Shown here: positions 9,048 through 54,645 of the stretch, piece after piece | Layout: each line of letters opens with the position of its first letter | Numbering within the stretch: the first letter of the stretch is position 1 | The notes under the pieces: generated by a model | The model's database searches: none | Told to the model about the DNA's origin: nothing | What the model saw: the letters and a program-made list of their open reading frames with translations, nothing else | Translations under genes and position numbers: made by a program | IMG/VR virus record: IMGVR_UViG_3300048833_000212 | Location: 1-54,645 of that record | Direction: 5' to 3' (one strand) | DNA length: 54,645 nucleotides | Source: a virus | Lineage: Duplodnaviria > Caudoviricetes

Positions 9048-9305
9048 ATGAGCAACGACGAAGACATCATGGGCCAGTATGGCGAGGATCGCATCACGGG
9101 CTTCCGTGGGCGCATCACAGGCATTGTGCGCTACATCAGCGGCTGCACCCAGGTGCTGCTGACTCCGAAGGTCGGCACCGATGGGAAGATGCCGGAAGGC
9201 CAGTTCATCGACATCCAGCGCATCAAGGTCGATGAGACGGTGGTGCGCATCATGCTCGACAACGCGCCCACGCCCGGCTTCGATCAGCTGCCGAAGGCGC
9301 GCTGA
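9048..9305 (+). CDS. conserved small phage protein
   Basis: DRITGFRGRITG...YISGC.Q.LLTP motif. Confidence 0.75.
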   Translation: MSNDEDIMGQYGEDRITGFRGRITGIVRYISGCTQVLLTPKVGTDGKMPEGQFIDIQRIKVDETVVRIMLDNAPTPGFDQLPKAR

Positions 9306-10414: not shown

Positions 10415-10593
10415 AGGTGAAGGAGTGCCGGACCTGCATCCATCGTCGCGAGGGGATGCTGGCTGTGGACCCATACGAGTGCCGCCGCTATCCTCCAGCA
10501 GTTGTCACATGGGATCATACTCGCAACCAGACGGTATGGCCGAAGGTCAAGCCAAACGACTGGTGCGGCGAATGGAAGGAAGACAAGTCATGA
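10411..10593 (+). CDS. small Cys-rich phage protein
   Basis: CRTC...CRRYPP...WPKV...DWCGEW. Confidence 0.75.
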   Translation: MKVKECRTCIHRREGMLAVDPYECRRYPPAVVTWDHTRNQTVWPKVKPNDWCGEWKEDKS

Positions 10594-10811
10594 GCGAGAC
10601 AAAGGCCCATCTACAGAATGTGATGAAGGCACTGGAAGACATCATCCCAGGCTGCGCCATCGTCCTGCTGGTTGCACCCTTCAATGCGCCGGAAGGAGCG
10701 AGGGTGAACTACATCTCCAACGGGAAGCGCGAGACGATGCTGGTGCTGCTGAAGGAGTTTGTCGCACGCGCCGAAGGTCGCGCCCACGACGCTCCGGAGA
10801 GGAAGCAATGA
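10590..10811 (+). CDS. hypothetical protein
   Basis: IVLLVAPF...RVNYISNGKR motif; ATGA overlap. Confidence 0.75.
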   Translation: MSETKAHLQNVMKALEDIIPGCAIVLLVAPFNAPEGARVNYISNGKRETMLVLLKEFVARAEGRAHDAPERKQ

Positions 10812-11125
10812 GCGAGACGAAGAAAAGGCGACAGGTCTTCTGCCGCGTCAAGCACACGAAGGCAGGGACGGACATTGCCCCATGCGATGCACTCTCATCA
10901 GTCCTGATTTATTCGTATGGCGGCGCAGGCGCTAGGCTCGCCACAATGTTCCCATTCACAGATGGCATCCCGCAAGAGGGAAGGAACAAGCGCCTTGTAA
11001 TTGCGCCGACGAAGAAGCAAGGCAAAGGAGTGGTGGCGAACTTCTGCCCGTATTGTGGCGAGCCTCTGACGGAGGGTGGTCGCGGTTTCGTTGCAGAGCA
11101 GGCGAAGCGAAGGTGCAAGGCATGA
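10808..11125 (+). CDS. hypothetical protein with FCPYCG Zn-knuckle
   Basis: ATGA overlaps at both ends. Confidence 0.7.
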   Translation: MSETKKRRQVFCRVKHTKAGTDIAPCDALSSVLIYSYGGAGARLATMFPFTDGIPQEGRNKRLVIAPTKKQGKGVVANFCPYCGEPLTEGGRGFVAEQAKRRCKA

Positions 11126-13200
11126 ACCCCATCGACGCGATCCGCGCCGCACTGATCCCCTCGCGCGTTCAGCAGGTGGGCCAGCAGGCGATTGACGATG
11201 AGATACACGCGCTCATCGCTGCCTTCGACTTCACGAAGTGGATGGTGGGGAGGCTCGATGCCGGAGCGCGCCTGTCCTCCGCTCATGGCTCTTCGCTGCT
11301 CTACTGCGTGGGCCTGGCCGACAATCCCCCGGCGCCGGGGGAGAAGAAGCATATGTGGTTTGACACGACGCTGCCGGACATCGACGTGGACCTGCAGGAC
11401 GATCTTCGCCACCTGACCTTCGCCCACATCGAAGCGACCTATGGGAAGGAGCGGGTGGCGCGCCTCGGAACGGTCGGCACCTTCAAGGCGCGCAGCGCGC
11501 TCCAGGAGGTCGGCATGGCACTCAAAATTCCGAAGTGGGAAACAGATGCTGTGGCTGACCAGATGATCAAGCGATCCTCCGGTGACGCTCGCGCGCAGCT
11601 GACGATCATCGACACGCTGGAGAATATGCCAGCTGGGAAGGACATGCTGAGGGACCATCCCGAAGCGATCATCGTGACGCGCATCGAAGGCCACCCGAAG
11701 AACGCAGGCCAACACGCGGCAGGCGTCGTCATCTCCAATGATGCCATTGATGAGATTGTCGCGGTGGATGCTCGCACAGGTGCTGCTATGTGCGACAAGG
11801 ATGATGCGGAGGGAGCGTATGGCCTCCTGAAGGCGGACATCCTCGGCCTCACGCAGCTGAGTGTCTTCGCGGAGACGCTGGAGCGTGCCGGCCTCCCGCG
11901 CGACTATCTGGACCACGTGCCGTATGACGACAAACTCGCCTTCGTTGTCATCAATGAGCGACGCTACAGCGGTGTGTTCCAGTTTGAGGGAGGCGCGCTG
12001 CAGAGCGTCGCACGCGCTGTGCACATCGACTCATTCAATGACTTCGTCGCGATGACGGCGCTGGCGCGTCCAGGGCCGCTCGCCAGTGGCTCCACCAACG
12101 AGTGGATCAACCGGCGCACAGGGAAGGATCGCGTCACCTATCCGCACGAGATGCTGCAGCCCTACATGGAAGAGACGCTGGGCGTCATCATCTACCAGGA
12201 GCAAATCCTCACCATCGGTCGCGCCGTTGGCGACCTCGACTGGCCTGAGTTGACTGCTCTTCGCAAGGCGATGAGCAAGAGCCTCGGCAAGGAATACTTC
12301 GACAGGTTCGGCAATCCATGGAAGAGCGCCGCGATACGGAAGGGGATGCCGACGCAGGTGGCGGAAGACGTGTGGACTGCGATGTGCGCATATGGATCGT
12401 ATGGCTTCAACAAGTCGCATGCCTACTCGTATGGACTCATCAGCTACTGGTGCGCTCACCTGAAGGCGCGCTATCCGCTGGAGTTCCTGGCGTCCACTCT
12501 CTCGCACACGAGCGACCCAGCGCAGCAGGTGGAACTCCTGCGCGACCTCCTGGCCGAAGGTTATGACTACATCCCCATTGATCCGTCTGTCTCCACCCAC
12601 CGCTGGGAGGTTGCGGAGAGGGAGGGGAAGAAGGTGGTGGTTGGACCTTTGACGGGTGTGCGTGGTATCGGCAGTGTGGCCGTCCAGAAAATCCTGAGCG
12701 CACGCGGCGCCGGGGAGCCGATGCCTGCGCGCTATGCGAAGCTGCTGGAGGCTCCGAAGACTGACATTGACTCGCTGTTCCCGATACGGGATGCGATCCG
12801 GCGCTGCACTCCGGACCTCCGTGAGAAGAACATCCACACGCCTCCCACGATGATCAGCGTGCTGGAGCACATGCCCGACAACAGCGAGGTTCTCATCATT
12901 GGCGTCCTGCTGAAGATCAACCAGCGTGACGAGAATGAGGAAATCAAGATCGCACGGCGCGGTGGGAAGCGCGTGACGGATGGCTTCCTGCTCTCGCTGA
13001 ATTTGAACATCAAGGATGACACCGGCCAGTTCTTCGCGAAGGTTGGCCGCTTCGATTTCGATGTGCTGGGGAAGCGCATCCTGGACCATGGCCGCGCAGG
13101 GAAGGCCATCTGGGCATTGAAGGGAAGGCTCTTCAAGCGCGGCTCCTTCTCAATGCTGACAGTGCGCAACGCGCGCCTCATCGGTGACCTCGATGAGTAG
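11122..13200 (+). CDS. dnaE: DNA polymerase III alpha, C-terminal part (catalytic palm, fingers, HhH, OB)
   Basis: LPDIDVD, GQHAAGVVI, LLKADILGL, GVFQFE, ALARPGPL, IIYQEQ, YGFNKSHA. Confidence 0.95.
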   Translation: MNPIDAIRAALIPSRVQQVGQQAIDDEIHALIAAFDFTKWMVGRLDAGARLSSAHGSSLLYCVGLADNPPAPGEKKHMWFDTTLPDIDVDLQDDLRHLTFAHIEATYGKERVARLGTVGTFKARSALQEVGMALKIPKWETDAVADQMIKRSSGDARAQLTIIDTLENMPAGKDMLRDHPEAIIVTRIEGHPKNAGQHAAGVVISNDAIDEIVAVDARTGAAMCDKDDAEGAYGLLKADILGLTQLSVFAETLERAGLPRDYLDHVPYDDKLAFVVINERRYSGVFQFEGGALQSVARAVHIDSFNDFVAMTALARPGPLASGSTNEWINRRTGKDRVTYPHEMLQPYMEETLGVIIYQEQILTIGRAVGDLDWPELTALRKAMSKSLGKEYFDRFGNPWKSAAIRKGMPTQVAEDVWTAMCAYGSYGFNKSHAYSYGLISYWCAHLKARYPLEFLASTLSHTSDPAQQVELLRDLLAEGYDYIPIDPSVSTHRWEVAEREGKKVVVGPLTGVRGIGSVAVQKILSARGAGEPMPARYAKLLEAPKTDIDSLFPIRDAIRRCTPDLREKNIHTPPTMISVLEHMPDNSEVLIIGVLLKINQRDENEEIKIARRGGKRVTDGFLLSLNLNIKDDTGQFFAKVGRFDFDVLGKRILDHGRAGKAIWALKGRLFKRGSFSMLTVRNARLIGDLDE

Positions 13201-43650: not shown

Positions 43651-43869
43651 CTAGGCGCCCACCCTAGGCCGGTCCCGGTCCAGCCTCAGAAGAGCCTCCG
43701 CCCGGCGCCCATCCCCGGCTGCGATCCGGAGCGCGACCTCAGCGAGGTCGCCCAGCCGCACCGCGTGCCGGTTGTCTTCCGGCTTCCGCCCGGCAGCACG
43801 GATGGCGTCATTCATCTCGATGCTGGCCGACACGAGCGCATCGGCCAGAGCGTCGATGTTTGTCGTCAT
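43651..43869 (-). CDS. hypothetical protein
   Basis: ATGA overlap with the helicase stop. Confidence 0.6.
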   Translation of the reverse strand: MTTNIDALADALVSASIEMNDAIRAAGRKPEDNRHAVRLGDLAEVALRIAAGDGRRAEALLRLDRDRPRVGA

Positions 43870-45305
43870 GACTCCCAGTCTTCATCTTCCAGGATGCGGA
43901 GGATGTCCGGCATCGCCATCGCAGCGATGGTCGCTCCATCGACATAGGACTGGAGGGTGCGCGCATCGAAGGATCGTGCGGCCACGAGGTCCGTGTAATT
44001 GACGACACCAACAGTGCCGAGACGGTGGATGCGATCCTCGCTCTGCCAGCGCGCGATGGCGCCAGGCACGTGCGAATAGTAGATGGCGTCATTGCAGCCA
44101 CCCTGCAGGTTCAGCCCGGCTCCACCCGCCTTCGGGTTGGAGACGAAGAACCTGATGCTTGGGTCGGTGAGGAAGCGAGCCTTCGCCACCTCACGGTTCT
44201 TGTCATTCGTCTCGCCATCATAGCGCACAGCCTGCTCGCCAAGCACGTCCATCAGCAGGGAGATGTCGTCACGGAAGCGTGCCCATATGGCGATCTTCCC
44301 CTCTGTGGCTTCGATCTTCTCCATCAGCGCCGCCATCCGTGGGTTGCGCAGCGGATCATCGAACAAGCGGTGTATCTTCCCCGCCTCATCCTTCACGAAG
44401 CCGCTGGCAACTTGCGAGATGCGGGTGAAGGCGACAGCAGCATTGGCAGCACTCACGACCTCGCCACTGCGGATGGCCGATGCCATCCCCTTCTTCAGCG
44501 TCTTGATCATTGCCAGCTGCTCGGCTGTTAGGTCGAAGTGCCACTTGCCTCGCATCTTCGCTTCGATGCCGGCCTGGTCCTTCGTGAAGTGCGCGATGTA
44601 TGGCGCCGTCTTCTCCTTCCACCGCGCGACATTCCGATGGCCGATGATTTCCCGGTTCTCAAATCCGCCCATGATGCAATACTCGCGGCGGAAGTGCGTG
44701 ACGTATTGGATGCCGATGATGGTGGGGTCCAGGAATAGGAACTGCGCCCACTCTTCCTCCAGGCTCTTCGCGAGCGGAGTGCCAGTCATGATCACGCGAT
44801 GGCTGACCATCGCTCCCAGCCGCCTCGCCTCCTTCGCGCGGCGGCTGCGTGGGTTCTTGATCGTCTGGCTCTCATCGATGATGATGAGCACGCGACCTTT
44901 GTGGAGGTCGATGAACTGCTTGGCGATGTTGAAGCCATTCGCGCTGGCGCTGATCGCGTCGATGTTCATGGAGAGAAACCGGAGCGAGTTCCCCGGCGCC
45001 GCGCTCTCAGGGAGTTTCTTCACAGGCCATTCGATCCCCACGAAGGGGAGAGGCGCGTGGACGGGCAGCTGCTCGCGTATCCACTGGCGATGGACTCCCT
45101 TCAGCGAGAGGATGAGCACGCCAGTGATGACTCCCTCTGCCCAGCGGATGAAGGAGAGGTCAATGCCCACCTTCGTCTTCCCCAGGCCTTGTTCAAAGAA
45201 GACTGCGAAGTGCCGTTGCTTCCGCGCCTTCTCAAGCGCGTCCACCTGCCAGAATTTTCCCGGCACCTTCTCCACGAATGGGATCGCATCTTCAATCATC
45301 ATCAC
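43866..45305 (-). CDS. SNF2-family helicase
   Basis: EQGLGKT, IIDESQTIKN, MTGTP, GGAGLNL, QSEDRIHRLG. Confidence 0.93.
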   Translation of the reverse strand: MMMIEDAIPFVEKVPGKFWQVDALEKARKQRHFAVFFEQGLGKTKVGIDLSFIRWAEGVITGVLILSLKGVHRQWIREQLPVHAPLPFVGIEWPVKKLPESAAPGNSLRFLSMNIDAISASANGFNIAKQFIDLHKGRVLIIIDESQTIKNPRSRRAKEARRLGAMVSHRVIMTGTPLAKSLEEEWAQFLFLDPTIIGIQYVTHFRREYCIMGGFENREIIGHRNVARWKEKTAPYIAHFTKDQAGIEAKMRGKWHFDLTAEQLAMIKTLKKGMASAIRSGEVVSAANAAVAFTRISQVASGFVKDEAGKIHRLFDDPLRNPRMAALMEKIEATEGKIAIWARFRDDISLLMDVLGEQAVRYDGETNDKNREVAKARFLTDPSIRFFVSNPKAGGAGLNLQGGCNDAIYYSHVPGAIARWQSEDRIHRLGTVGVVNYTDLVAARSFDARTLQSYVDGATIAAMAMPDILRILEDEDWES

Positions 45306-45396
45306 TCTCGCTTGGCAGGTGGGGAGAGGATCGCCGCAACGGTCCTCACCTCACCTGCCTGGATCGCTCCAGGCAGGCTGGCCGTGAAGGCGAAGG

Positions 45397-45696
45397 TCAC
45401 TTCACCTTCACGAACTCGTGGGCGACATCCCAGTTCAAATCCTGGGACCGGCCACCCTTCTTGATGTAGTCCTCATACACGATCCCCGGATTGCGCATGA
45501 TGATCGCGTGCGACTTGAAGCCGGTGGAGTTGGGACGGCGCGGGTTGGCCTCGCACGTGCTGGTCAGCGTCTTCCCCGCATGGGCGGAGGGACGCCCGGT
45601 GCCGGTGGCCTTCGCCTTCGGTGCCGCCTTCGGTGCCGCCTTCGGTGCCGCCTTCGCCTTCGGCGCCGTCTTCTTTGTCGTGGTGACTTTCGCCAT
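45397..45696 (-). CDS. basic protein: H1-like KAAP repeats + small C-terminal domain
   Basis: KAAP repeats; NPRR...PGIVYEDY...GG...DL.WD; AGGAG RBS. Confidence 0.8.
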   Translation of the reverse strand: MAKVTTTKKTAPKAKAAPKAAPKAAPKAKATGTGRPSAHAGKTLTSTCEANPRRPNSTGFKSHAIIMRNPGIVYEDYIKKGGRSQDLNWDVAHEFVKVK

Positions 45697-45717
45697 TGTA
45701 GTCTCTCCTGCTGTCTG

Positions 45718-45742
45718 GTCCCTGGCGGGATGCCAGGGACCG
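45718..45742 (-). terminator. intergenic hairpin
   Basis: GGTCCCTGGC...GCCAGGGACC 10-bp stem. Confidence 0.45.
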
Positions 45743-45756
45743 GGTGGTGGCCTGCG

Positions 45757-46383
45757 TCAGGCCTTCTTCGGCTCGCTCACCAGAACGTGCCCGAACTTGA
45801 TGTCCCAGCGGAGGTCCACATTGCGACCTCCCGCCGCGATGAAGTCTTCATACTTGATGCCCGGCTTCTGGAGGATGATCTCCATGCTGTTGAATCCGTG
45901 CGACGGATTGCGCCGGTGGTTCTTGTCCTTCACCGCCTTCAGCGTCATGCCGGTGAACTCCGCGACCTTCCCCCGCTTCGCCCCGCCAGCCGCCTTCAGT
46001 GCTGCCTTCTCCGCAGCCTTCTCCGCCTTCACCCGCGCGCGCTCCGCCTTCGCAGTGGTGGCCGCCACCGTCGCCTCCGCGACCTTCGCTGCGATGGAGC
46101 CGGTGACCTTCGTGGTCTTCTCCTTCGGCTGCGTGTTGGCCTCCAGATCGGCCGCAGCCTTCTCCACCGCCTTCGCCGGCACCGCCGCCTTCAGCGTCTC
46201 GGTGATCTTCGCGATCCGCTTCATGGCGGTGGCACGGTCGGTGAACTTGTTCACTTCCGGCTCACCCAGCATCTTCGCCATCGCGTTGTAGAGGTTCACG
46301 ATGCCCTTCATGTTCGCGGTGGCGGTCAAGCCTTCCGCTTCCACGATGCAGTCACCCGCTTCCTGCGCATCAATCTTCGCCAT
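45757..46383 (-). CDS. Lys/Ala-rich protein with the same C-terminal domain
   Basis: LYN...VNKFTDRATA..RI N-domain; PGIKYEDF..GG..VDLRWD. Confidence 0.8.
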   Translation of the reverse strand: MAKIDAQEAGDCIVEAEGLTATANMKGIVNLYNAMAKMLGEPEVNKFTDRATAMKRIAKITETLKAAVPAKAVEKAAADLEANTQPKEKTTKVTGSIAAKVAEATVAATTAKAERARVKAEKAAEKAALKAAGGAKRGKVAEFTGMTLKAVKDKNHRRNPSHGFNSMEIILQKPGIKYEDFIAAGGRNVDLRWDIKFGHVLVSEPKKA

Positions 46384-46462
46384 GTCACTCGCTCCATGAT
46401 GGCGCCGTCCCTCGGCGCCGTGGTGATGATAACTGAGCAGCACATGCTGCCCAGGCAGTTGA

Positions 46463-47419
46463 CTACTCGGCCAGCTTCAGCAGAAGCGTCTGGGCCATCG
46501 CCTTCTTCGTGCGCAGATCACCGACCCACGACCGTGCCAGCCGCGACTCAGCGGAGGTCGATGCGATGTGATCGCTCCAGAACGTGATACCGTTCATCAC
46601 GCCCCACGCATCCCCCGGAGTTGCGCCCGGTCCATTCACGATGGCGCCGATCAGCTGCTGAAGAACCTTCGGCTGATTCTCCGGCTGCATGATCACTGCC
46701 GCCAGCTCATTGTCCTCGATGATGTCCGGGAAGAAGGTCGGCAGCAGCACCTTGTTGACCGCATCCTCCAGCCCCAGCTTCGTCTTCGCCAGCAGCCGCG
46801 CATTCGCCTCATGCTGGCCGAAGGCTTCGTTGGCCAGCGCCAGCTGGAGCCGCGCCGCATTGAAGTCGAAAGCCTTCATGTGGTTCTGGCGATACTCCAC
46901 CGAGCCTTCGTTCATCGCGGCCATCATGGTGTTCATGCACACCACACGCACGCTCGTGGTGGAGAGCAGCGAAGCCTTCCCCACGATGTGGGGCGAAGTG
47001 AACAGGACGTATCCCTTCACCCTGTCGCCCTTCCGCACTTCAAACTCCCGGTTGAGGCGCATCAGCCCCCAGATGATCTCACCACCACGCAGTGAGCCGG
47101 CAGTCTCCAGCGCCGCGCCTCCCGCCTTCGCATACTCCCCCATGAACTCCAGCACGTCAGTGTTCTGGATCGGCGCCCACGCTTCGCCAGTGATGGTCAT
47201 CATCTTCTGGTCGCTGTCGCGCACGAGCGCATACTTGTTGTTGGCACGATAGACCTCGCCATCCGTGCCCTGGAAAAACATCGGCTGCTTCGTCACCATC
47301 CAGTCGATGCCAGCCGCCTTCGCCATCTCGGCAGGCGTGACCAGACCTTCGACCTTCGTGCCCTGGCCATGCCACGGCGTCTCACCGGCATATGCCATCG
47401 TCTCAACTTCAGAACTCAT
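46463..47419 (-). CDS. DUF932/DUF945-family protein
   Basis: ETMAYAGETPWHG.G, AGIDW.V, PIQN, ETAGSLRGG, VRVVCMNT, AWG..N.IT...DH. Confidence 0.9.
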   Translation of the reverse strand: MSSEVETMAYAGETPWHGQGTKVEGLVTPAEMAKAAGIDWMVTKQPMFFQGTDGEVYRANNKYALVRDSDQKMMTITGEAWAPIQNTDVLEFMGEYAKAGGAALETAGSLRGGEIIWGLMRLNREFEVRKGDRVKGYVLFTSPHIVGKASLLSTTSVRVVCMNTMMAAMNEGSVEYRQNHMKAFDFNAARLQLALANEAFGQHEANARLLAKTKLGLEDAVNKVLLPTFFPDIIEDNELAAVIMQPENQPKVLQQLIGAIVNGPGATPGDAWGVMNGITFWSDHIASTSAESRLARSWVGDLRTKKAMAQTLLLKLAE

Positions 47420-47441
47420 CACCGTCATTCCTTCTTCATCG

Positions 47442-47470
47442 ACCGTGCCTGTTCCTCCGGAAAAAGGGAA
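47442..47470 (-). promoter_or_regulatory. putative promoter TTCCCT-N17-CACGGT
   Basis: Same motif family; upstream of the DUF932 RBS. Confidence 0.5.
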
Positions 47471-47499
47471 GCCCCAAAATCCAGTCGGCACAAGTGCTG

Positions 47500-47579
47500 C
47501 ATTTGAGCTGGCTCATCAGCGGAGGATGCTCATGTCTCCGGACCTCCCCCGGCGCCGCGATGCCAGGGAGGGTTTCGCC
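47500..47579 (-). ncRNA. type II hammerhead ribozyme with loop I-3' tail pseudoknot
   Basis: ggc-GAAA-stem III-GUC^-cggag[acaugagcauc]cuccg-CUGAUGA-gcc-agcucaaaug; predicted cut 47541/47540. Confidence 0.9.
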
Positions 47580-48020
47580 TTATGTGACGTATTGATATGA
47601 CCTGCTCTTCTCCGTGGGCACCCACAGGTATCCGCGACCGCCAACCCCTTGTGGCTTGTTGTTCCCTTCAACAAGCCCCATCAGCTTAAGATCATTGAGC
47701 GTCCCAGACACATTCCCCTCAAAGCCAGGCAAAGACCTTGACAGCTGCTGCTTGATCTCCCTGCTTCCAATCCCGTTTGGGTTCGCAGCGACAACGCGCA
47801 GGACAGCCTCACGCTGACGGTTTGTGACGCGGGGATCAGGGCTGCGGCGCTTCTCCCTTTGTGCTGCCGCCACCGGAGCCGCCACCGGAGCCGCCACCGG
47901 AGCCGCCACTGGCATTGCTGTCCCGTCAGCGAAGATCATCACTGACGTGTTGTCAGGGAAAATCCAGTCACCTTTCGTGACAAGGTGGATGACCTCATGC
48001 TTCTTAAAAGTTTCGCTCAT
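47580..48020 (-). CDS. protein with PVAA repeats and a probable C-terminal winged helix
   Basis: VLRVV..NP.GI.S.EI...VSGTLNDLK..GLV; AAGGA RBS. Confidence 0.7.
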   Translation of the reverse strand: MSETFKKHEVIHLVTKGDWIFPDNTSVMIFADGTAMPVAAPVAAPVAAPVAAAQREKRRSPDPRVTNRQREAVLRVVAANPNGIGSREIKQQLSRSLPGFEGNVSGTLNDLKLMGLVEGNNKPQGVGGRGYLWVPTEKSRSYQYVT

Positions 48021-48247
48021 CACTTCGTTCCTTCGTTCATGTTGCGTTCGCTCGCGAGCCGCAGCGCGGCTTTCGCTTTGGATGGCAGCTTCCGCACTGC
48101 GCGGAAATCGCCTGGGGTGGATAAGAAGAAGATCGTCACACCGCTGCTGTGGACGATACGCAAGTGGTTGGTCGATGTCCGTCCATCGACCTTCCATCCT
48201 TCGCCCAAGGTCTTCTCAACCTCAGTGAAGAATTTACGGACGCCCAT
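48020..48247 (-). CDS. HicA-like small protein
   Basis: GWKV....NHLRIVH..G..I...STPGD.R pattern. Confidence 0.55.
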   Translation of the reverse strand: MGVRKFFTEVEKTLGEGWKVDGRTSTNHLRIVHSSGVTIFFLSTPGDFRAVRKLPSKAKAALRLASERNMNEGTK

Positions 48248-48540
48248 CAGCGCCTCCTGCTGTAGTGGGTCCTGTGGCGAGGATAGGCGCGGCAGTGGTA
48301 GCAGAACACCGGCTCCACCGGAGCCTCCAGCCATGCGCGGTATCGGTCTGCGGAGCCGCGTGCCACGCAGGCCTCCATCGTCTCTCCGTCGCGGATGCCT
48401 CCGGCACCGCGTGGCGTGGCAGTGTAGCAGTCCAGGGATCGCGCCTCCGCCGCGAAGCGCCGTCCCAGCGGCGTGTCCGGTCCTGGCGTCCCGCAATGTG
48501 CGAGTGCCAGGAGAGTAAGGAGCATGAGCGCGCGCTTCAC
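48247..48540 (-). CDS. predicted lipoprotein
   Basis: MKRALMLLTLLALAHC signal and lipobox-like Cys. Confidence 0.6.
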   Translation of the reverse strand: MKRALMLLTLLALAHCGTPGPDTPLGRRFAAEARSLDCYTATPRGAGGIRDGETMEACVARGSADRYRAWLEAPVEPVFCYHCRAYPRHRTHYSRRR

Positions 48541-48902
48541 AGCGTGTTGCTCATACAGAAGGTGAAGGCGCGCTGCTCGGCTCCTGCTGAGGTGCGCGTC
48601 TCATATCCGATGGCGCTGGCAGCGCGGATGCGGAGGCGCACTGCCTCGCTGCTTCCGTTCCGCCGCGCCTGTGCGTCATTGATCGCCTGGAGCGATGCCA
48701 GGGGAACTCCCCGCAGCTTCGCATCGAAGGCGGAAGCCGCGATGGCTCCCAAGGCGCGGCAGATACGCTCCCGCTGGCTTGCGGTGGGCGCTGAGGCTGC
48801 GCTAGAGGGAGGGACAGGCGAGGGTGCGGGAGCAGGGAACACCCCGCTCGCGCCCCACGCTACGGCCAGCAAGGTCGCACTGGCCAGCAGCATCGTCTTC
48901 AT
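48537..48902 (-). CDS. exported hypothetical protein
   Basis: Signal peptide, Pro-rich linker, two Cys. Confidence 0.65.
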   Translation of the reverse strand: MKTMLLASATLLAVAWGASGVFPAPAPSPVPPSSAASAPTASQRERICRALGAIAASAFDAKLRGVPLASLQAINDAQARRNGSSEAVRLRIRAASAIGYETRTSAGAEQRAFTFCMSNTL

Positions 48903-48905
48903 GGC

Positions 48906-49100
48906 TCAGCCTCCCGCGCTGTAGGGCGAGACGCTGACCAGCACCGTCTTACCGCCAGTGGCGCTGTTCATGCACCGCACGTAGTCTTCGGCCTGCTTCT
49001 GCGCATCGGCAGGCGAGGCTGCAGTGATGATCTTCCCCGGCATGTTCTTCGGCGCGCCACCGAGCAGCTGGTTGGTCGTGTGGATGATGTAATAGTTCAT
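48906..49100 (-). CDS. hypothetical protein (MNYYIIH...)
   Basis: AAGGA RBS directly after a ribozyme. Confidence 0.7.
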   Translation of the reverse strand: MNYYIIHTTNQLLGGAPKNMPGKIITAASPADAQKQAEDYVRCMNSATGGKTVLVSVSPYSAGG

Positions 49101-49118
49101 GACTCGTTCCTTCGTGGT

Positions 49119-49185
49119 TGGCTCATCAGGTGGGGTCATCCCCACGACCTTCGCGGCGCCGGGGGAGCGCCGCTAGGTTTCGCCA
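49119..49185 (-). ncRNA. type II hammerhead ribozyme
   Basis: uggc-GAAA-ccuagcggcgc..gcgccgcgaag-GUC^-gugggg-auga-ccccac-CUGAUGA-gcca; cut 49146/49145. Confidence 0.92.
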
Positions 49186-49356
49186 TCAGTGTGTCTTCCC
49201 TGTCACCATCTGCCCGATGATGAAGCGCGTCATGTCGTTTATGAACATGATGTGGTCTGCGCTCTTCGGCTCTTCGCTGAGGATCGCTCGCATGTGGGCA
49301 CGATATGCGCGCGCCTCCTTCGCGGCTGCGTCGCGCGCAGTCTTGTCCTCCAGCAT
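49186..49356 (-). CDS. hypothetical protein (56 aa)
   Basis: GGAGG RBS; the stop abuts the ribozyme. Confidence 0.65.
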   Translation of the reverse strand: MLEDKTARDAAAKEARAYRAHMRAILSEEPKSADHIMFINDMTRFIIGQMVTGKTH

Positions 49357-49766
49357 CACGCAGCCTCCTTCGCCAGCGCGATCTTCTCTGCGAAGGGAAG
49401 CGCGCTCCACTCCTTCTTCTCTTCGGTGCTCAGGCCGCAGTAGCTGTCGAAGCATCCGAGGTTCACCACGCAGTCTGCGATGTCGTCTGCGCCCATCTCA
49501 TCCGCGCCATCGATGTCGAATGCGATTGCGTTCCAGACGCGCGAGCATGCCTGGATGAAAGTCTTTCGGTCAGTAAGCCTTCTGGCCCACTCGCAGACGA
49601 TCTTGAACTCATCGCCAAGATCGTTGGCGGCCCATCCGCCATTGTTGTCCCATGGGTCAAGCCGTGTGACCGTCGCCCACTCTCGCGGCCCATCTCCTGA
49701 CAGGCTCAACGGATAGGAAATGCGATCCCCAACCGCAAGACCGTAGTGCCGCCCGTTTCTGCACAT
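49356..49766 (-). CDS. hypothetical protein
   Basis: GGAGG RBS; TGATG overlaps. Confidence 0.7.
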   Translation of the reverse strand: MCRNGRHYGLAVGDRISYPLSLSGDGPREWATVTRLDPWDNNGGWAANDLGDEFKIVCEWARRLTDRKTFIQACSRVWNAIAFDIDGADEMGADDIADCVVNLGCFDSYCGLSTEEKKEWSALPFAEKIALAKEAA

Positions 49767-50017
49767 CACGCAGCCTCCATCATCTCGGCGCGGAACTCCC
49801 AGAGGTCTTGCGCCTCATTGAAGGAGAAGTGCCGCACGATCCAGTCTGCGCACTCGGTGCTGGTGGCCGTCATCGCCCACCGTCCCTTCGTGCCGTAGAA
49901 ATCCTTGTGGGACTCATACACCCACTCGCGCAGGCTGTCGTGAAGGTCGCGCTCTTCGCCCTGCGCAGCCTCCAACAAGCGCACGCGATCCTTCGCCTGC
50001 TTCTCATCCAACACCAT
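49766..50017 (-). CDS. hypothetical protein (MVLDEKQ...)
   Basis: AAGGAG RBS after a ribozyme; YESHKDFYG.K.R motif. Confidence 0.7.
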   Translation of the reverse strand: MVLDEKQAKDRVRLLEAAQGEERDLHDSLREWVYESHKDFYGTKGRWAMTATSTECADWIVRHFSFNEAQDLWEFRAEMMEAA

Positions 50018-50031
50018 CGTCTCGCTCCTTC

Positions 50032-50099
50032 GGCTCATCAGGTGGGGTCCATCCCCACGACGCTCCCCGGAACCTCGCGGCGCCAGGGAGCGTTTCGCC
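50032..50099 (-). ncRNA. type II hammerhead ribozyme
   Basis: ggc-GAAA-cgcuccc...ggggagc-GUC^-gugggg-augga-ccccac-CUGAUGA-gcc; cut 50059/50058. Confidence 0.93.
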
Positions 50100-50100
50100 A

Positions 50101-50325
50101 TCAGTCGTCGCCTGCTTCCTTCGGCACGATCTTTGCGCCAGCACCGAAGCCTTCGGTGATCACCTTCCCATCCGGCTCGCAGGCGATCTTCACGCCATGG
50201 ATGCTGACCACGAGAGGTCGCGACTGGAACACGATGCCGACCTGCCGCAGCGTCTCCTTTCCGCGCTTCCACACGAGCGTGACACTCATGCCGTATTTGA
50301 ATTTGAGGTCGCTGCCGATTGCCAT
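50101..50325 (-). CDS. hypothetical protein (MAIGSD...)
   Basis: AGGAGG RBS; the stop abuts the ribozyme. Confidence 0.7.
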   Translation of the reverse strand: MAIGSDLKFKYGMSVTLVWKRGKETLRQVGIVFQSRPLVVSIHGVKIACEPDGKVITEGFGAGAKIVPKEAGDD

Positions 50326-50621
50326 CACGCGACCTCCTGCGTGGAGAGAGGGATCACCGACTGATAGAGGCTCCACGCGAGCCACCGACCGCCAGTGCGC
50401 TTCCGGACCTCCGCCAGCAGAGCGTCCCAGGTCATGCCCGTCTCCCCCTCCACTTCTGCGATGGCGTCCAGCACCACGCGATCCACGCCGCCATATGCGA
50501 GCGTAGCGCACTCACTCGGCGCGTGGAAAGCAGCCATGTCTTCGCTGATGTCTGCCATCAGCTGGATCGCCTGCTCATTCGCGCGCCACACGCGACCGAA
50601 AGCCGCGCCAAGGTTCATCAT
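50325..50621 (-). CDS. hypothetical protein
   Basis: GGAG RBS; TGATG overlap. Confidence 0.7.
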   Translation of the reverse strand: MMNLGAAFGRVWRANEQAIQLMADISEDMAAFHAPSECATLAYGGVDRVVLDAIAEVEGETGMTWDALLAEVRKRTGGRWLAWSLYQSVIPLSTQEVA

Positions 50622-50635
50622 CACTCTCACTCCGT

Positions 50636-51025
50636 TCAGGTCTTGATGCGGTTCAGGATGCGGGTGAACTCGCGAAGGAGTTCCCCGCGCGCTTCTGTCT
50701 TCGCAGCCTCCAGCGCGTTGGAGAAGATGTCAGTGCTGCCAGAGGTCGCATTGCAGGCGGAGGTCAGCAGGCGATCCGACAAGTGGGCCACCGTCTCGCG
50801 CGCCGTCGCGATCATCGCATCATCATCCTCCATGCAGTGAGGGTCGAAGCGATAGAGTTCATCAGCAGTGAACTGCGCGACGGCCAGACGGCGCGTGTCG
50901 CTCCAGTCAAGCCTTCCACCATCTGCCAGCGCCTCGCTCATCGCCTTCGCGCGGCTCAAGGCTTCGTCTCGCGCACCCTCGACATTGGCGAGGATCATCT
51001 GCGCAGCGCGGCTCTTCGTCTTCAT
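50636..51025 (-). CDS. hypothetical protein (MKTKSRAA...)
   Basis: AAGGA RBS after a ribozyme. Confidence 0.7.
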   Translation of the reverse strand: MKTKSRAAQMILANVEGARDEALSRAKAMSEALADGGRLDWSDTRRLAVAQFTADELYRFDPHCMEDDDAMIATARETVAHLSDRLLTSACNATSGSTDIFSNALEAAKTEARGELLREFTRILNRIKT

Positions 51026-51039
51026 CGTCTCGTTCCTTC

Positions 51040-51107
51040 GGCTCATCAGGTGGGGTCCATCCCCACGACGCTCCCCGGAACCTCGCGGCGCCGGGGAGCG
51101 TTTCGCC
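51040..51107 (-). ncRNA. type II hammerhead ribozyme
   Basis: Near-identical to the 50032 copy; cut 51067/51066. Confidence 0.93.
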
Positions 51108-51109
51108 AT

Positions 51110-51850
51110 TCACTTGAGCAGGCCTGCGGTCTTCGTCGCAGCAGGCTTCTTGTCGGCGCCAACCGACATCGTCAGCTGCGCCTTCGCGCCGTGCTCCCGC
51201 CCGGCTTCGCTCGCTGCCGAGTAGCGGTTCACCGTCACAGCCTTGCGCGGCTTCGCCAGCTTCACGTTGTTGTCCACCCAGGCCTGCGCAGCCGACATCT
51301 TCGCCTCATAGAGGTTGACGACCACGAGCGCACGCCCATCGCTCTCAGCGGTGCCGCCTTCCTTCGCCTGCTTGATGAGTTCCTTGCAGCGCCAGTAGAT
51401 CGTCTTGGCTGCCGCATTCGTGAAGTCGGTGCGCGCGCGAGCCGCAGTCAGCTGCATGTTCGCCTTCGCAGCGATCAGCGCGCCAGCCCACACGCCGCTC
51501 AAGATCATCTTCGCGACCGAGTGTGCGACCTCCACATCTGCGCGCGTCCCCACGAAGGTCACGATCAGCGTCTGCGACGGGGAGCGGGTCCAGTAGAATT
51601 TGCAGAAGTAAAGTTCAGCGATGGCGGAGCAAATCCAGCGCGACCACGGGCTGGTGTTGAACTTGTAGCCAAAGGTCGCAGCGTCCACCGTCTCTTCCAC
51701 CGCATCGTCGCCTGCGATGTCAGCCTGGCTGAGGTTGTGCTCCAAGAGCATCGCGTGCGCCTTCGCCAGCGCGCTCTGGCGCTCCGCTTCGCTGCTGTTG
51801 TTGTTGGCGAGCGCCAGCAGCTTGCGAATGCGGTCAATCGTCTTTTCCAT
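51110..51850 (-). CDS. DUF2786-domain protein
   Basis: IDRIRKLLALA....SEAE...ALAKA..MLLEHNLS; FVG...DVE.A; G...G. Confidence 0.85.
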   Translation of the reverse strand: MEKTIDRIRKLLALANNNSSEAERQSALAKAHAMLLEHNLSQADIAGDDAVEETVDAATFGYKFNTSPWSRWICSAIAELYFCKFYWTRSPSQTLIVTFVGTRADVEVAHSVAKMILSGVWAGALIAAKANMQLTAARARTDFTNAAAKTIYWRCKELIKQAKEGGTAESDGRALVVVNLYEAKMSAAQAWVDNNVKLAKPRKAVTVNRYSAASEAGREHGAKAQLTMSVGADKKPAATKTAGLLK

Positions 51851-51868
51851 CTCAGTCTCCTTCGTGTG

Positions 51869-51933
51869 GGCTCATCAGGTGGGGTCCATCCCCACGACAC
51901 ATCCCTGCTCCTGGGAGCAGGGAGTGTTTCGCC
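51869..51933 (-). ncRNA. type II hammerhead ribozyme
   Basis: ggc-GAAA-cacucccugcuc..gagcagggaugu-GUC^-gugggg-augga-ccccac-CUGAUGA-gcc; cut 51896/51895. Confidence 0.93.
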
Positions 51934-51935
51934 AT

Positions 51936-52160
51936 TCACTTCCGCGCGCGGCGCGGCTTCGTCGTGGTCACGTTCCCGTGGGCGATGTCCCAGCGGACAT
52001 CGACCGGGCGGCCACCCTTCGCCACAAAGTCTTCGTAGGTGATGCCAGGGTTGCGGAGGATGATCTTCATGGAGTGGAAGCCGCAGCTGTCCTTCCGGCG
52101 CGGGTTGGTCGCGACGGTCGGAAAGAGCGGCTTGGAAGCAATGGAAGAGATGCGGGCCAT
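51936..52160 (-). CDS. stand-alone copy of the small domain found in 45397 and 45757 (74 aa)
   Basis: NPRRKDSCGFHSMKIILRNPGITYEDFVAKGGRPVDVRWD. Confidence 0.8.
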   Translation of the reverse strand: MARISSIASKPLFPTVATNPRRKDSCGFHSMKIILRNPGITYEDFVAKGGRPVDVRWDIAHGNVTTTKPRRARK

Positions 52161-52179
52161 TGTCGTGTTCCTTCGTGTG

Positions 52180-52232
52180 GGCTCATCAGGTGGGGTCCAT
52201 CCCCACGACGCTCCAATGCGGAGCGTTTCGCC
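52180..52232 (-). ncRNA. type II hammerhead ribozyme (shortest copy)
   Basis: ggc-GAAA-cgcucc-gcauu-ggagc-GUC^-gugggg-augga-ccccac-CUGAUGA-gcc; cut 52207/52206. Confidence 0.93.
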
Positions 52233-52234
52233 AT

Positions 52235-52381
52235 TCACTTCGCAGCGCGCCTCTCAGCAGCGCGCGCTTCCTTCAGCTGCTCACGCAGCTTCGCGACCCG
52301 GCGCAGCAGCGCCTCTGTCGGATAGGAAGCGGCGTGGATGCGTGCGGTTAAGAGGCGCGCTGCAATCGTCTTCGCGTTCAT
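52235..52381 (-). CDS. 48-aa basic helical peptide (not in the ORF track)
   Basis: MNAKTIAARLLTARIHAASYPTEALLRRVAKLREQLKEARAAERRAAK*; AAGGA RBS; bracketed by two ribozymes. Confidence 0.7.
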   Translation of the reverse strand: MNAKTIAARLLTARIHAASYPTEALLRRVAKLREQLKEARAAERRAAK

Positions 52382-52396
52382 CGTCGTGTTCCTTTG

Positions 52397-52459
52397 GACT
52401 CATCAGGCGAGGTCTATCCCCGCGACCTTCGCGGCGCCGAGGCGCCGCTAGGTTTCGTC
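52397..52459 (-). ncRNA. type II hammerhead ribozyme (first in the transcript)
   Basis: gac-GAAA-ccuagcggcgcc-uc-ggcgccgcgaag-GUC^-gcgggg-auaga-ccucgc-CUGAUGA-guc; compensatory changes in stems I and II; cut 52424/52423. Confidence 0.92.
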
Positions 52460-52800
52460 GTTGTTTTTGTTTGGTTGAGAAGACCTGGGGTTAACCTTCC
52501 GAGCGTCGCTGCTGTCTCCGTCTCCTTCCCCTGTGGGTGCGCCTCCCGGCGCTCCTTTCTGGTAGGAAGATCGGCGCATGCTTCGCCTTCTTCTCTGGGT
52601 TCGCTCCGGTGGGTCGCTTCCTCTCCCAGGCTCTTCCGCCGCAGGGGTTAGAGGGTCGCTCTCCGAAACTACTAGCCGGTCAACTACCGGCCGGTTTTTT
52701 CGTCGCTCTTCGGTCCCTTCCGGGAGCCTGCGACGGGGAACCGTATCCCCGCTTCGCTACTCAGCGCCTCCTGGGGATCAGCCCCACCGCGTTTCGCCAG
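52460..52800 (-). ncRNA. candidate structured leader RNA
   Basis: About 340 nt without a convincing gene; several short stems, two capped by GNRA loops; lies between the putative promoter and the first hammerhead. Confidence 0.4.
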
Positions 52801-52803
52801 ACC

Positions 52804-52832
52804 TTTATCGTCCAGCGCCTGGAGGAAGGGAA
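52804..52832 (-). promoter_or_regulatory. putative leftward promoter TTCCCT-N17-GATAAA
   Basis: Same motif family; heads the minus-strand arm. Confidence 0.5.
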
Positions 52833-53338
52833 GCAGGAAAAGTGATGGAACCCAAAAAATTTTTGCATAGAGAGGAACGCGCGCGCGGCTTCTGCAGAAG
52901 GCTCCCTGCCCGGCCACCGGGAGAGGTCGCACCCGGCTCCCCTCCGATGGGCGCCGGGGAGGCGCACCCGGCTCCCCTCCCTCCGGTGGGGTCCGGACCT
53001 CGCACCCCACCCCTCGCCCATCCCTGCCCAGCCGCGCCCCATTCCAGGGGAGGGAGGGGAGGCGACGAAAGCGGACACCCACAGGAATGGGCTAGGATGG
53101 GCGCCTAGGCCTGTCTCCCGGTTCCGCACAAGATCGTATGTCCCACGCTCCGAAAACCAGCCTAGCACCCCTCCCTGAAGATGTGAAATCTATTCTTGCA
53201 ATTACTGCATTGTTACGATCCGTTTTCAGTATTGGCTGCAAGAACTCGTGCAGTATTGGAAGAACTCATCAAGTGAAAGAAGGCTGGTGAAAGGTCTAAA
53301 TAATTAGTTCATCCAGTTTGACTTTCCTTATCTTCCCC

Positions 53339-53545
53339 AGATCATTCCGGCTCCCAAAGGCATGTCGGGCTGGAGCCGGATCATTCTTGCAGCGGGCTGA
53401 CCGACCTTCCGCCAGAGGATCATTCCTCCAGCGTCCCAGGTTCCCTTCTGGCAGAGGATCATTCTTGCAGCGGGCTGACCGACCTTCCGCCAAAGGATCA
53501 TTCCTCCAGCGGCTGGACCTTCGACCTTTTGCCAGAGGATCATTC
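53339..53545. repeat. tandem array of six GATCATTC-anchored units, period 39 (once 42) bp
   Basis: Anchors at 53339, 53378, 53417, 53456, 53495, 53537; units 2 and 4 are nearly identical. Confidence 0.9.
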
Positions 53546-53699
53546 TGCTGGTAGTGTGAACTGGCTCCCCACCGCGACGATCCCCCGGCGCCGCGATGGC
53601 GATGCTGGCAGTCACCGGCTCTTCGATGATGGGCGGAGACTTTACTGAACATGTCATGAATAGTTGAAGAACTGTTTCACCAGCACCAGGAAAACCAGC

Positions 53700-53728
53700 T
53701 TTCCTTCCACGAAGAGTTCCCCGATTAT
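53700..53728 (+). promoter_or_regulatory. putative rightward promoter TTTCCT-N17-GATTAT
   Basis: Same motif family; upstream of the SSB-like gene. Confidence 0.5.
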
Positions 53729-53788
53729 TCCGCCTGCCGCAAAAGTGGTGTGGATAACCCGCACACAAGTCGGCAGGAGACTTATGCT

Positions 53789-54645
53789 GTGAAGAATAAA
53801 GACGCCAAGACGAAGGAAGCGGAAGTGCCGACTGCTTCCGATGTGGTCACCGAGACCACGATGGACAAGCTGCCGGTCCCGCTGGACCCGCCCGATACAT
53901 CGGATGACTTCTCCGAACATGCCGGCGCAGGCATGGAGAATGTCGGCGCTGCCGACCTCCTGGTGCCGCGCCTCACGATCCTCCAGCAGCTGTCGCCCCA
54001 GCTGAATGACCGCAAGGCGGAGTTCATCGAAGGCGCGAAGCAGGGGATGCTCTGCGACGTGGGCGTGGGCGAGGTCTGGACGGCCATCCACTTCGTGCCC
54101 TGCCACTATGAGAAGGTCTGGCTGGAGTGGGCGCCGCGCGCTTCCGGGAAGGGACTGGTGGCCGTCCACAACTCCCCGGCCATCCTCGACAAGTGCCGGC
54201 TGAATGAGAAGAACCAGCCGATGAATGGGCCGAACCTCGTGAGCGAGACGGCGCAGGTGTATGGCATCAACCTCTCGGCTGGTGGCCGTCGCTCCTTCAT
54301 CTCCTTCGCGAGCACCCAGCTGAAGAGCGCGCGCAAGTGGATGATGCTCGCCACCGGGGAGAAGCTGATGAGCGCGAAGACCGGGAAGGAGTTCACGCCT
54401 CCCCTGTTCTATCGCAGCTACATCATCGACAGCACGATGACCAGCAATGCGGAGGGTGACTGGTTCCTCTATCGCGTGGCGCGGGCGGAGGCTCTGCCTG
54501 CTCTCGCGGCGCCGGGTGGACCGTTCCCCACGCTGAACTGGAAGTCGCTCCGCGATGAGTGCGTGGCCTTCGCTGACTCGCTGCGTCGTGGCGAGATGAA
54601 GGCGGATGCCTCCACGCTCGCTGACGATCCCTCGGCTGGCTCCAG
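53789..54645 (+). CDS. putative ssDNA-binding/annealing protein (about 295 aa, continues to nt 158)
   Basis: GTG after AGGAGA; AGAGMENV...DLLVPRLTILQQLSPQ, LEWAPR, STQLKSARKW, PPLF, SNAEGDW. Missing from the ORF track because it wraps the join. Confidence 0.75.
   Translation, partial: MKNKDAKTKEAEVPTASDVVTETTMDKLPVPLDPPDTSDDFSEHAGAGMENVGAADLLVPRLTILQQLSPQLNDRKAEFIEGAKQGMLCDVGVGEVWTAIHFVPCHYEKVWLEWAPRASGKGLVAVHNSPAILDKCRLNEKNQPMNGPNLVSETAQVYGINLSAGGRRSFISFASTQLKSARKWMMLATGEKLMSAKTGKEFTPPLFYRSYIIDSTMTSNAEGDWFLYRVARAEALPALAAPGGPFPTLNWKSLRDECVAFADSLRRGEMKADASTLADDPSAGS
54519..54645. repeat. 127-bp terminal overlap identical to 1-127
   Basis: Exact match. Confidence 0.97.

Follow-up and report, generated by a model that had tools for sequence, protein, structure and literature searches.

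Whether a phage might divide a polycistronic transcript into separate messages by means of ribozymes encoded in the transcript itself is the question raised by the minus strand of IMG/VR virus record IMGVR_UViG_3300048833_000212, on which seven motifs of type II hammerhead ribozymes (HH1 to HH7) lie within 4,960 nt, between small genes. We have analysed the entire record (54,645 bp, referred to below as the window), which has a G+C content of ~62% and an exact terminal repeat of 127 bp and is the complete genome of an apparently free tailed phage. An earlier reading of this DNA (the original prediction) proposed that the seven elements cut an early transcript into units of 1 to 5 genes. Here we confirm, at the level of sequence, that the elements are genuine type II hammerhead motifs placed in the intercistronic gaps of a minus-strand operon, and we argue that this operon would probably be processed by them into units with stabilised ends.

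Perreault et al. (2011, PMC3088659) had already described clusters of hammerheads flanking prophage genes and suggested the same role for them, and IMG/VR contains arrays of 7, 8 and 24 copies, so that the novelty implied by the original prediction was overstated. The window is therefore a new case of a described arrangement, with more copies than the triples named in the text of that paper and fewer than public arrays can reach. According to the text of the 2011 paper, the triple arrays of three bacteria, Agrobacterium tumefaciens (where the array flanks ardA), Azorhizobium caulinodans and Clostridium scindens, cleave in vitro, and that of A. tumefaciens also does so in E. coli (PMC3088659). 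In the case of Desulfovibrio vulgaris, three type II hammerheads cleave in vivo, as shown by cyPhyRNA-seq in the text of PMC8782182. The role of hammerheads in prokaryotes was still an open question, with a persistent link to phages, in the text of a 2017 review (PMC6155905), and a 2019 review also lists their function as open. Our literature search, which covered article text, found no study of a hammerhead array in phage infection beyond Perreault et al. 2011.

Results

Seven complete hammerhead cores on one strand

We searched the window with a pattern spanning the full core (CGAAAC-N10-40-GTC-N8-30-CTGANGA), using 100 shuffles as a control. The pattern gave seven matches, all on the minus strand between 47,513 and 52,457, against a mean of 0.12 in the shuffles, none of which reached seven, and a chance origin of the motifs is thus ruled out; CTGATGAG by itself is unexceptional, with 11 matches where 4.4 are expected. 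A rule-based detector requiring a stem II of at least 1 bp, GAAA, a stem III of at least 3 bp with A15.1-U16.1, H17, a stem I of at least 4 bp and CUGANGA returned the identical seven minus-strand elements and nothing from the plus strand (Table 1). These are the seven elements that the original prediction had named, and the 5' ends that it expected downstream of cleavage (52423, 52206, 51895, 51066, 50058, 49145 and 47540) are reproduced by the detector to the nucleotide.

Judged by the core rules in the Methods of Perreault et al. (C3 U4 G5 A6 N7 G8 A9, G12 A13 A14, A15.1-U16.1, and H17, which is not G; PMC3088659), all seven copies contain CUGAUGA, GAAA and U-C17 in the correct order and with the correct spacing. 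The pairs that adjoin the core are present throughout (G10.1-C11.1, G-C or C-G at 1.1-2.1, and A15.1-U16.1), with no mispair, and every copy has type II topology, with stems I and III closed by loops and stem II open to the flanks. Pairwise identity among the copies ranges from 63% to 99%, no core carries a substitution, and double compensatory changes are found at five of the 16 consensus pairs. As had been described, stem II reads either GGC/GCC or GAC/GUC, and stem I reads GUGGGG/CCCCAC, GCGGGG/CCUCGC or CGGAG/CUCCG. The earlier claim of an invariant core among covarying stems is therefore borne out: the core has been kept while the stems have drifted.

The minimum-free-energy fold is the three-way junction in six of the seven copies (z -2.4 to -4.7), and predicted hairpin energies run from -11.1 to -28.9 kcal/mol for stem III and from -5.1 to -9.7 kcal/mol for stem I. 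A covariance model built from the seven copies, which by construction matches its own training set (at least 62.6 bits), detected no eighth copy in the genome, the next match scoring 16.6 bits and being the antisense of a stem III.

Placement of the ribozymes between genes

The minus strand is the coding strand across the hammerhead region, as indicated by the pattern of G+C at third codon positions (GC3), by Shine-Dalgarno sequences and by Pfam or PHROG matches for genes C, O and R. Plus-strand open reading frames (ORFs) over the same region, such as 50783-52042, were considered as coding and ruled out by the GC3 pattern and the minus-strand Pfam and PHROG matches.

Between 47.5 and 52.5 kb each intercistronic gap of more than 12 nt contains a hammerhead, and genes within a unit overlap or lie at most 12 nt apart. 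HH2 to HH7 begin 2, 2, 2, 1, 1 and 0 nt after a stop codon, HH1 following no ORF, and HH1 to HH6 are followed by AAGGA 1-7 nt past stem II and by ATG 14-19 nt past stem II; close to HH7 there is no Shine-Dalgarno sequence, and ~87 nt separate it from the next start codon. Six copies close behind a stop codon and six ahead of AAGGA is what the original prediction had reported. The ribozymes would bound units of 1, 1, 1, 3, 3 and 5 genes, followed by a distal unit, and to this extent the placement of the motifs at the junctions between cistrons supports the proposed division of the polycistron; the word "early", however, is a guess from the position of the operon and its ORFan content.

Twelve of the 14 genes between HH1 and HH7 (A-N) have no Pfam or PHROG family, the exceptions being gene C and a weak match for gene K. 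Genes E and F overlap stop on start, and the N-termini of K and L look by eye like signal peptides or lipoboxes. The distal unit has gaps of 60 and 91 nt that contain no hammerhead. Gene B (51936-52160), between HH2 and HH3, has a domain of 54-60 residues, of no known family, that shares 55-59% identity with two minus-strand genes further down the operon (45757-46443 and 45397-45696).

Table 1 Coordinates of the hammerheads, the units they would bound and the control region of the window.
Feature	Coordinates	Strand	C17	Predicted RNA	Description
Control region	52460..53749				non-coding divergent control region, upstream of HH1
HH1	52397..52459	minus	52424		stem II GAC/GUC; stem I GCGGGG/CCUCGC; UA/GAN-like internal loop in stem III
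Unit 1	52235..52381	minus		52423-52207, 217 nt	gene A (48 aa, no family); ATG 15 nt past HH1
HH2	52180..52232	minus	52207		shortest copy, 53 nt; sole copy above Rfam gathering score
Unit 2	51936..52160	minus		311 nt	gene B (74 aa)
HH3	51869..51933	minus	51896		stem III 13+4 bp, -22 kcal/mol
Unit 3	51110..51850	minus		829 nt	gene C (246 aa; DUF2786 and DUF7168, phrog_421)
HH4	51040..51107	minus	51067		stem III -28.9 kcal/mol; 67/68 identical to HH5
Unit 4	50101..51025	minus		1008 nt	genes D, E, F (129, 101, 74 aa; no family)
HH5	50032..50099	minus	50059		
Unit 5	49186..50017	minus		913 nt	genes G, H, I (83, 137, 56 aa; no family); stop/start overlaps
HH6	49119..49185	minus	49146		stem II 4 bp; stem III with UA/GAN-like internal loop as in HH1
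Unit 6	47580..49100	minus		1605 nt	genes J-N (64, 121, 97, 75, 146 aa)
HH7	47500..47579	minus	47541		stem I CGGAG/CUCCG with 11-nt loop
Distal unit	43651..47422	minus			DUF932 gene O; gene B paralogues P and Q; SNF2-type helicase; 72-aa ORF

A model for self-processing of the operon

In the model that we favour, host RNA polymerase would transcribe the operon from the divergent control region at ~53.2 kb, transcription by the host enzyme being assumed because no phage RNA polymerase gene was found among the ORFs searched, a set that is not exhaustive. Each hammerhead would then cleave itself after C17. On the upstream side, the stop codon of the mRNA would be followed after 0-2 nt by a terminal GC-rich stem III hairpin bearing a one-nucleotide overhang and a 2',3'-cyclic phosphate. 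On the downstream side, the 5' end of the mRNA would be a hydroxyl group at the base of stem I, whose hairpin would precede a Shine-Dalgarno sequence and then an ATG 14-19 nt past the ribozyme. Judging from topology, the cleavage products should separate fast, with religation unlikely, because they would be held together only by an open stem II of 3 bp. The operon would in this way become the six units and the distal unit of Table 1, and HH1 would strip a structured leader of ~700 nt from gene A, like a natural insulator. Each unit would thereby gain hairpin-protected, nuclease-unfriendly ends and a standardised translation start.

These features would matter in the light of what is known of bacterial mRNA decay, in which a hairpin at the 3' end hinders 3' exonucleases, poly(A) cannot be added to a cyclic phosphate, and 5'-OH ends and 5' hairpins disfavour 5'-end-dependent attack by RNase E. 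The early mRNA of phage T7 is cut by RNase III, a host protein, at intercistronic double-stranded stems, giving mRNAs that keep a 3' hairpin. The proposed scheme is like that of T7 in that a polycistronic transcript would be cut at intercistronic hairpins, and unlike it in that the RNA would cut itself, leaving 5'-OH and 2',3'-cyclic-phosphate ends. A second parallel is RiboJ, a synthetic insulator whose self-cleaving ribozyme, placed immediately ahead of the ribosome-binding site, trims off variable upstream RNA so that the message keeps a hairpin at its 5' end. The position of HH1 behind a long leader is similar; RiboJ, however, is engineered and not of type II, whereas the window contains a natural serial array.

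We consider it very likely that most copies self-cleave at some rate. Cleavage in vivo, stabilisation of the products, insulation of translation and the early timing of the operon are steps that we infer from the arrangement, and for the full model, in which the operon would be processed by ribozymes into end-stabilised units, we put the probability at about 0.65.

Evidence bearing on the activity of the copies

Several observations weigh against this model. The original prediction was to be checked with Rfam, and the outcome is mixed. With the type II model (RF02276, Hammerhead_II; gathering score 37 bits, matches reported at E values up to 10) HH2 alone passes the threshold, at 37.4 bits; three more copies are recovered below it (HH4 at 32.5, HH5 at 32.1 and HH7 at 28.8 bits), and HH1, HH3 and HH6 are not reported. 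That one copy in seven passes is explained by stems I of 5-6 bp where the family has ~9, by stem III insertions of up to ~20 nt, and by a pseudoknot tail that is missing or reduced in HH1-HH6. At the same limit the other RNA families of Rfam gave nothing credible in the window, the matches being weak and snoRNA- or miRNA-like; a partial match to the type I hammerhead, of 19.2 bits, lies inside HH1.

The pseudoknot between loop I and the 3' tail is a further point. At its canonical site a pseudoknot of at least 5 bp is clear only in HH7, where loop I (47532-47528) can form five Watson-Crick pairs with the tail (47508-47504), one nucleotide past stem II; HH7 aligns to the 3' tail of RF02276 that forms this contact. 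HH2 and HH3 could form only a UGG:CCA contact of 3 bp, which costs the third pair of stem II, the contact in HH4 is weaker (three pairs, including a G-U, using bases of stem II), and HH1, HH5 and HH6 have no pseudoknot near stem II, which leaves four to six of the seven copies without an evident contact. According to the text of Perreault et al., trimming the pseudoknot of a tested type II ribozyme lowered its rate ~20-fold and then >100-fold at 0.5 mM Mg2+; the pseudoknot is present in the majority, not all, of type II examples, and ~40% of hammerheads appear to use it (PMC3088659). As the contact is weak or absent in several copies and its loss slows cleavage, these copies may be slow at cellular Mg2+ or may differ in speed, and this is the main reservation about the activity of the seven.

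Furthermore, the minimum-free-energy fold of HH7 is not a hammerhead (z -0.40). A promoter scan gave two promoter-like sites, where 1.3 are expected, neither of them upstream of HH1, and thus located no promoter. No RNA run was listed with sequence for 47400-52600. What is known of end stabilisation comes from E. coli. A last measure, the probability of the hammerhead junction in the nearest-neighbour ensemble with 40-nt flanks, is 0.00-0.20 for the seven copies; ribozymes that are strong by Rfam, in the 57,338-bp IMG/VR record G161 described below, score even lower (median 0.000), and we therefore regard this measure as uninformative and do not hold it against activity.

Related copies provide a broader view of the stems. 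A pattern for this subtype matched 19 IMG/VR stretches and one metagenome-assembled genome (MAG), with 1-3 copies each in the examined DNA. Among 34 aligned copies (the seven and 27 related ones; 32 distinct), 94.4% of 497 cells pair and double changes occur in 12 of the 16 pairs, with two caveats: the alignment had been fitted to the model, and four pairs of stem I were prescribed by the search pattern. None of 500 shuffles reached the observed values, and slid partners pair in 27-47%.

Alternative roles

One alternative, which we think improbable although it fares best of the three considered, is that the ribozymes are active and are mainly of evolutionary value. The junction of stop codon, hammerhead and Shine-Dalgarno sequence would then be a portable cassette boundary at which small genes are shuffled, gained or lost by homologous recombination, and cleavage would merely make any new neighbour gene expressible. 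The near-identity of HH4 and HH5 extends through the Shine-Dalgarno sequence to the ATG, and the genes that flank them are unrelated; HH2 to HH4 share a preceding AAG-TGA-AU; the ORFs that arrays in other phages part one by one are small and differ in identity; other hammerhead-bearing viral stretches encode homologues of genes C (DUF2786) and O (DUF932); and in the text of Perreault et al. the flanked genes are not constant (PMC3088659). However, we saw no recombinant or cassette polymorphism, with no close relative found for comparison, and a phage genome with direct repeats of 53-70 nt is also prone to deletions. Nor would recombination by itself preserve all 13 core nucleotides in seven out of seven copies.

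Slightly less probable again is a role in which cleavage would lower or tune expression, the copies cutting at different speeds or under different conditions and so setting the lifetimes and stoichiometries of the units, or uncoupling the distal genes from a control element further upstream. Such a role would suit the heterogeneous contacts of the array, from the 5-bp pseudoknot of HH7 through the marginal 3-bp contacts of HH2 and HH3 to none in the others, and slower phage variants may be regulated according to the text of Perreault et al. (PMC3088659). Nevertheless, we recognised no extension that resembles an aptamer or could bind a ligand, Rfam has no further match in the region, and the uniform spacing of stop codon, ribozyme and Shine-Dalgarno sequence looks constitutive.

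That most copies are inactive hammerhead-derived hairpins, kept as barriers to RNase III or 3' exonucleases or not yet decayed, is quite unlikely, for although six of the seven fall under the Rfam gathering score, most have no evident tertiary contact, and a stretch of the leader that reads by eye as a decayed copy indicates that decay occurs, no core has a substitution despite identities down to 63%, compensatory changes are found in all three stems, and published tests show cleavage by hammerheads of like type and context (text of PMC3088659 and PMC8782182). Perreault et al. themselves raise inactive copies, splicing and circles as alternatives, which they did not detect according to the text of PMC3088659. 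We continue to prefer processing of the operon by active ribozymes.

Larger arrays in other phages

A looser type II pattern matched at least 120 IMG/VR stretches. On the richer strand of the 120 listed, the detector found no copy in 16, one in 74, two in 20, three in 4, four in 2, seven in 2, eight in 1 and eleven in 1, and it found none in 120 reversed-sequence controls; Rfam gave 34 matches in five of the listed stretches. A search of the whole record G161 gave 24 type II hammerheads above the gathering score, all on one strand within 7.6 kb (the minus strand of stretch L148, which is G161:C1:9000-18500), and other whole records searched contained 7, 4, 3 and 1. Among the contigs other than G161, G162 and L052 have arrays of 7 copies and L120 has one of 8. 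Our own model, applied to whole records, missed some of the copies that cmsearch recovers from the same DNA.

Like the window, G161 and the arrays of 7 and 8 copies have the order stop codon, type II hammerhead, Shine-Dalgarno sequence and ATG, all on one strand between small ORFs. Of the 24 ribozymes of G161, 21 begin between -1 and +5 nt from a stop codon and 22 have, 14-21 nt further on, an ATG equipped with a GAGG-type Shine-Dalgarno sequence; most neighbouring copies are separated by a single ORF of 47-120 codons. In contrast to those of the window, the G161-type copies score 45-72 bits in Rfam, have canonical 4-5-bp pseudoknots and part mostly single genes, with a spacing of ~316 nt. The phages are unrelated, the terminase of the window having no match in the other array-bearing phages, and because the terminase-unrelated G161 has the same layout, this layout is a recurrent design and not a quirk of one genome. 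We found no published description of arrays as large as the 24 copies of G161 in the literature. Since annotation at the Rfam threshold sees only one of the seven copies in the window, divergent type II arrays are likely under-counted in phage genomes.

Assembly may also play a part. Public unitig-style contigs from the probable source run break inside hammerheads, at 50037-50084, 51063, 51869-51887 and 52185-52198, which may be an assembly effect of the repeats that hides arrays in short-contig data. In three soil runs of one study we found a few short, near-identical pieces at a depth of 2-3, two of them crossing HH2 and HH4, with a substitution in loop III of HH2 and a one-base insertion in the C-run of stem I/loop I of HH4; the stems could still pair, the differences may be errors, and we base no conclusion about habitat or conservation on these pieces.

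Distant homologues of genes C and O (22-41% identity) lie in other hammerhead-bearing viral stretches, DUF2786-like ones in L045, L085, L108 and L118 and DUF932-like ones in L031, L047 and L125, and in L045 the DUF2786-like homologue starts 35 nt downstream of a hammerhead. Their occurrence hints at a recurrent gene set around these ribozymes. A possible association of DUF932 and DUF2786 with anti-defence or plasmid leading regions was dropped, as we found no paper with either name in that setting.

Another feature is shared by stem III of HH1 (52451-52425), stem III of HH6 (49177-49147) and that of ten related copies (in L009, L010, L011, L013, L014, L015, L016, L017, L019 and L020). All have the same asymmetric internal loop in stem III, two pairs above the core, with UA on one strand and GA plus one variable base opposite, and the helix beyond it covaries freely. 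The loop resembles UA-handle/GAN-type motifs and could be a tertiary or protein-binding module. We found no mention of it in the text of PMC3088659.

Leader, control region and remaining genome

Both gene arms of the genome diverge from the 1.3-kb non-coding region at 52,460-53,749. Its part nearest the operon, a leader at 52460-53160 on the minus strand, is ~700 nt long, GC-rich and non-coding, has internal direct and inverted repeats and is closed by HH1. It folds more strongly than shuffled sequences (z -3.0, 20 shuffles), and contains no Rfam family and no convincing ORF. A terminator-like hairpin is present on the plus strand at 52674-52696, minus-strand terminator-like matches in the terminator scan are weak, and an AT-rich stretch lies at ~53200-53330. 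At 53378-53553 four repeats spaced ~39-42 nt, 61-98% identical to the reference and each containing GGATCATTC as its core, have the appearance of iterons or operators.

Within the leader, the minus strand at ~52756-52798 reads by eye like a decayed hammerhead. It retains the start of stem II/GAAAC and a hairpin resembling stem I; it lacks stem III and the GUC site, and its core heptamer has changed. The covariance model does not report the stretch.

Minus-strand genes extend from ~52.4 kb down to 43.65 kb, and plus-strand genes from 53,750 across the end of the record to ~43 kb. The plus arm encodes ThyX-like and HD-domain nucleotide enzymes, a primase and a family A DNA polymerase (in two ORFs), together with structural and packaging proteins (large terminase, protease-capsid fusion, portal and tape measure protein); no tRNA genes were found in the window. 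On the plus strand, the DNA polymerase ORFs at 9305-10414 and at 11053-13200 correspond to successive portions of phrog_405 and are separated by a 128-aa ORF at 10425-10811 (phrog_35296, of unknown function), so that the split could reflect a mobile insertion or a genuine two-subunit enzyme. ORF 4598-5080 matches a PHROG annotated as "polynucleotide kinase" (E 5.8e-12) in its C-terminal part only and without Pfam support, and we draw no link from it to the ribozyme ends. A Pam3 gp34-like gene (53750-54645, plus) runs off the right end of the record and the first plus-strand ORF (88-732) is Pam3 gp33-like; the 127-bp terminal repeat cuts through this gene region and therefore fits a circularly assembled genome, not true physical ends.

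The closest matches point to Hyphomicrobiales, in the class Alphaproteobacteria, as the setting of this phage. The DUF932 protein is 44% identical to one of Aminobacter phage Erebus and 42% to one of a Rhizobium phage, and the sole bacterial genome contig with this ribozyme subtype belongs to a Hyphomicrobiaceae MAG, with three copies in 650 nt. Among 151 genomes of the order of that MAG the match was found solely in the MAG itself, which says little, as 31 of the hundreds to thousands of first-look candidates per genome were scored. A blastn search against 50,697 phage records returned a single match, of 176 bp, to Erebus, and in the DNA surrounding the DUF932 gene of Erebus no hammerhead was found at E values up to 1. 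Scans of IMG/VR with an exact 28-nt motif and with the DUF932 protein found no close relative, and metagenome scans gave 0 contigs and then five short contigs without protein similarity to genes A-S.

Discussion

The arrangement described here is like that of the prophage clusters of Perreault et al. in that several hammerheads of the same orientation flank single or few phage genes, and the published clusters include ones from Alphaproteobacteria. It differs in that the clusters named in the text of that paper (PMC3088659) are triples, and larger ones may be in its figures or supplements, whereas the window has seven copies in 5 kb, and in that the window is a complete, apparently free phage genome with terminal repeats and not a prophage. 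The hammerheads of D. vulgaris are likewise of type II and lie beside hypothetical or phage-like genes, two of them ~300 nt apart; in the text of that study, however, they number three, lie in a bacterial chromosome and form no array along an operon (PMC8782182).

To specialists the window will be a tidy example and not a surprise. The phage is uncultured, and the concept is fifteen years old. The value of the window is that of a complete-genome test case, in which all seven ribozymes are intact, each cleavage site is predicted to the nucleotide, the sizes of the products are defined and the pseudoknot differs among the copies of one array.

A wider view, which we hold only tentatively and consider improbable as it stands, is that hammerhead arrays are a general phage device for islands of accessory genes, the junction being both self-processing punctuation and a recombination-competent cassette boundary. 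If this were true, a small gene placed between two junctions would be expressed as its own end-protected mRNA, in a manner somewhat like that of integrons, and the presence or absence of a pseudoknot would make the copies cleave at different speeds, giving the units a built-in order or dosage. The recurrence of such arrays in unrelated phages, with up to 24 copies, suggests in any case a common, selectable organisation of the accessory-gene operons of phages.

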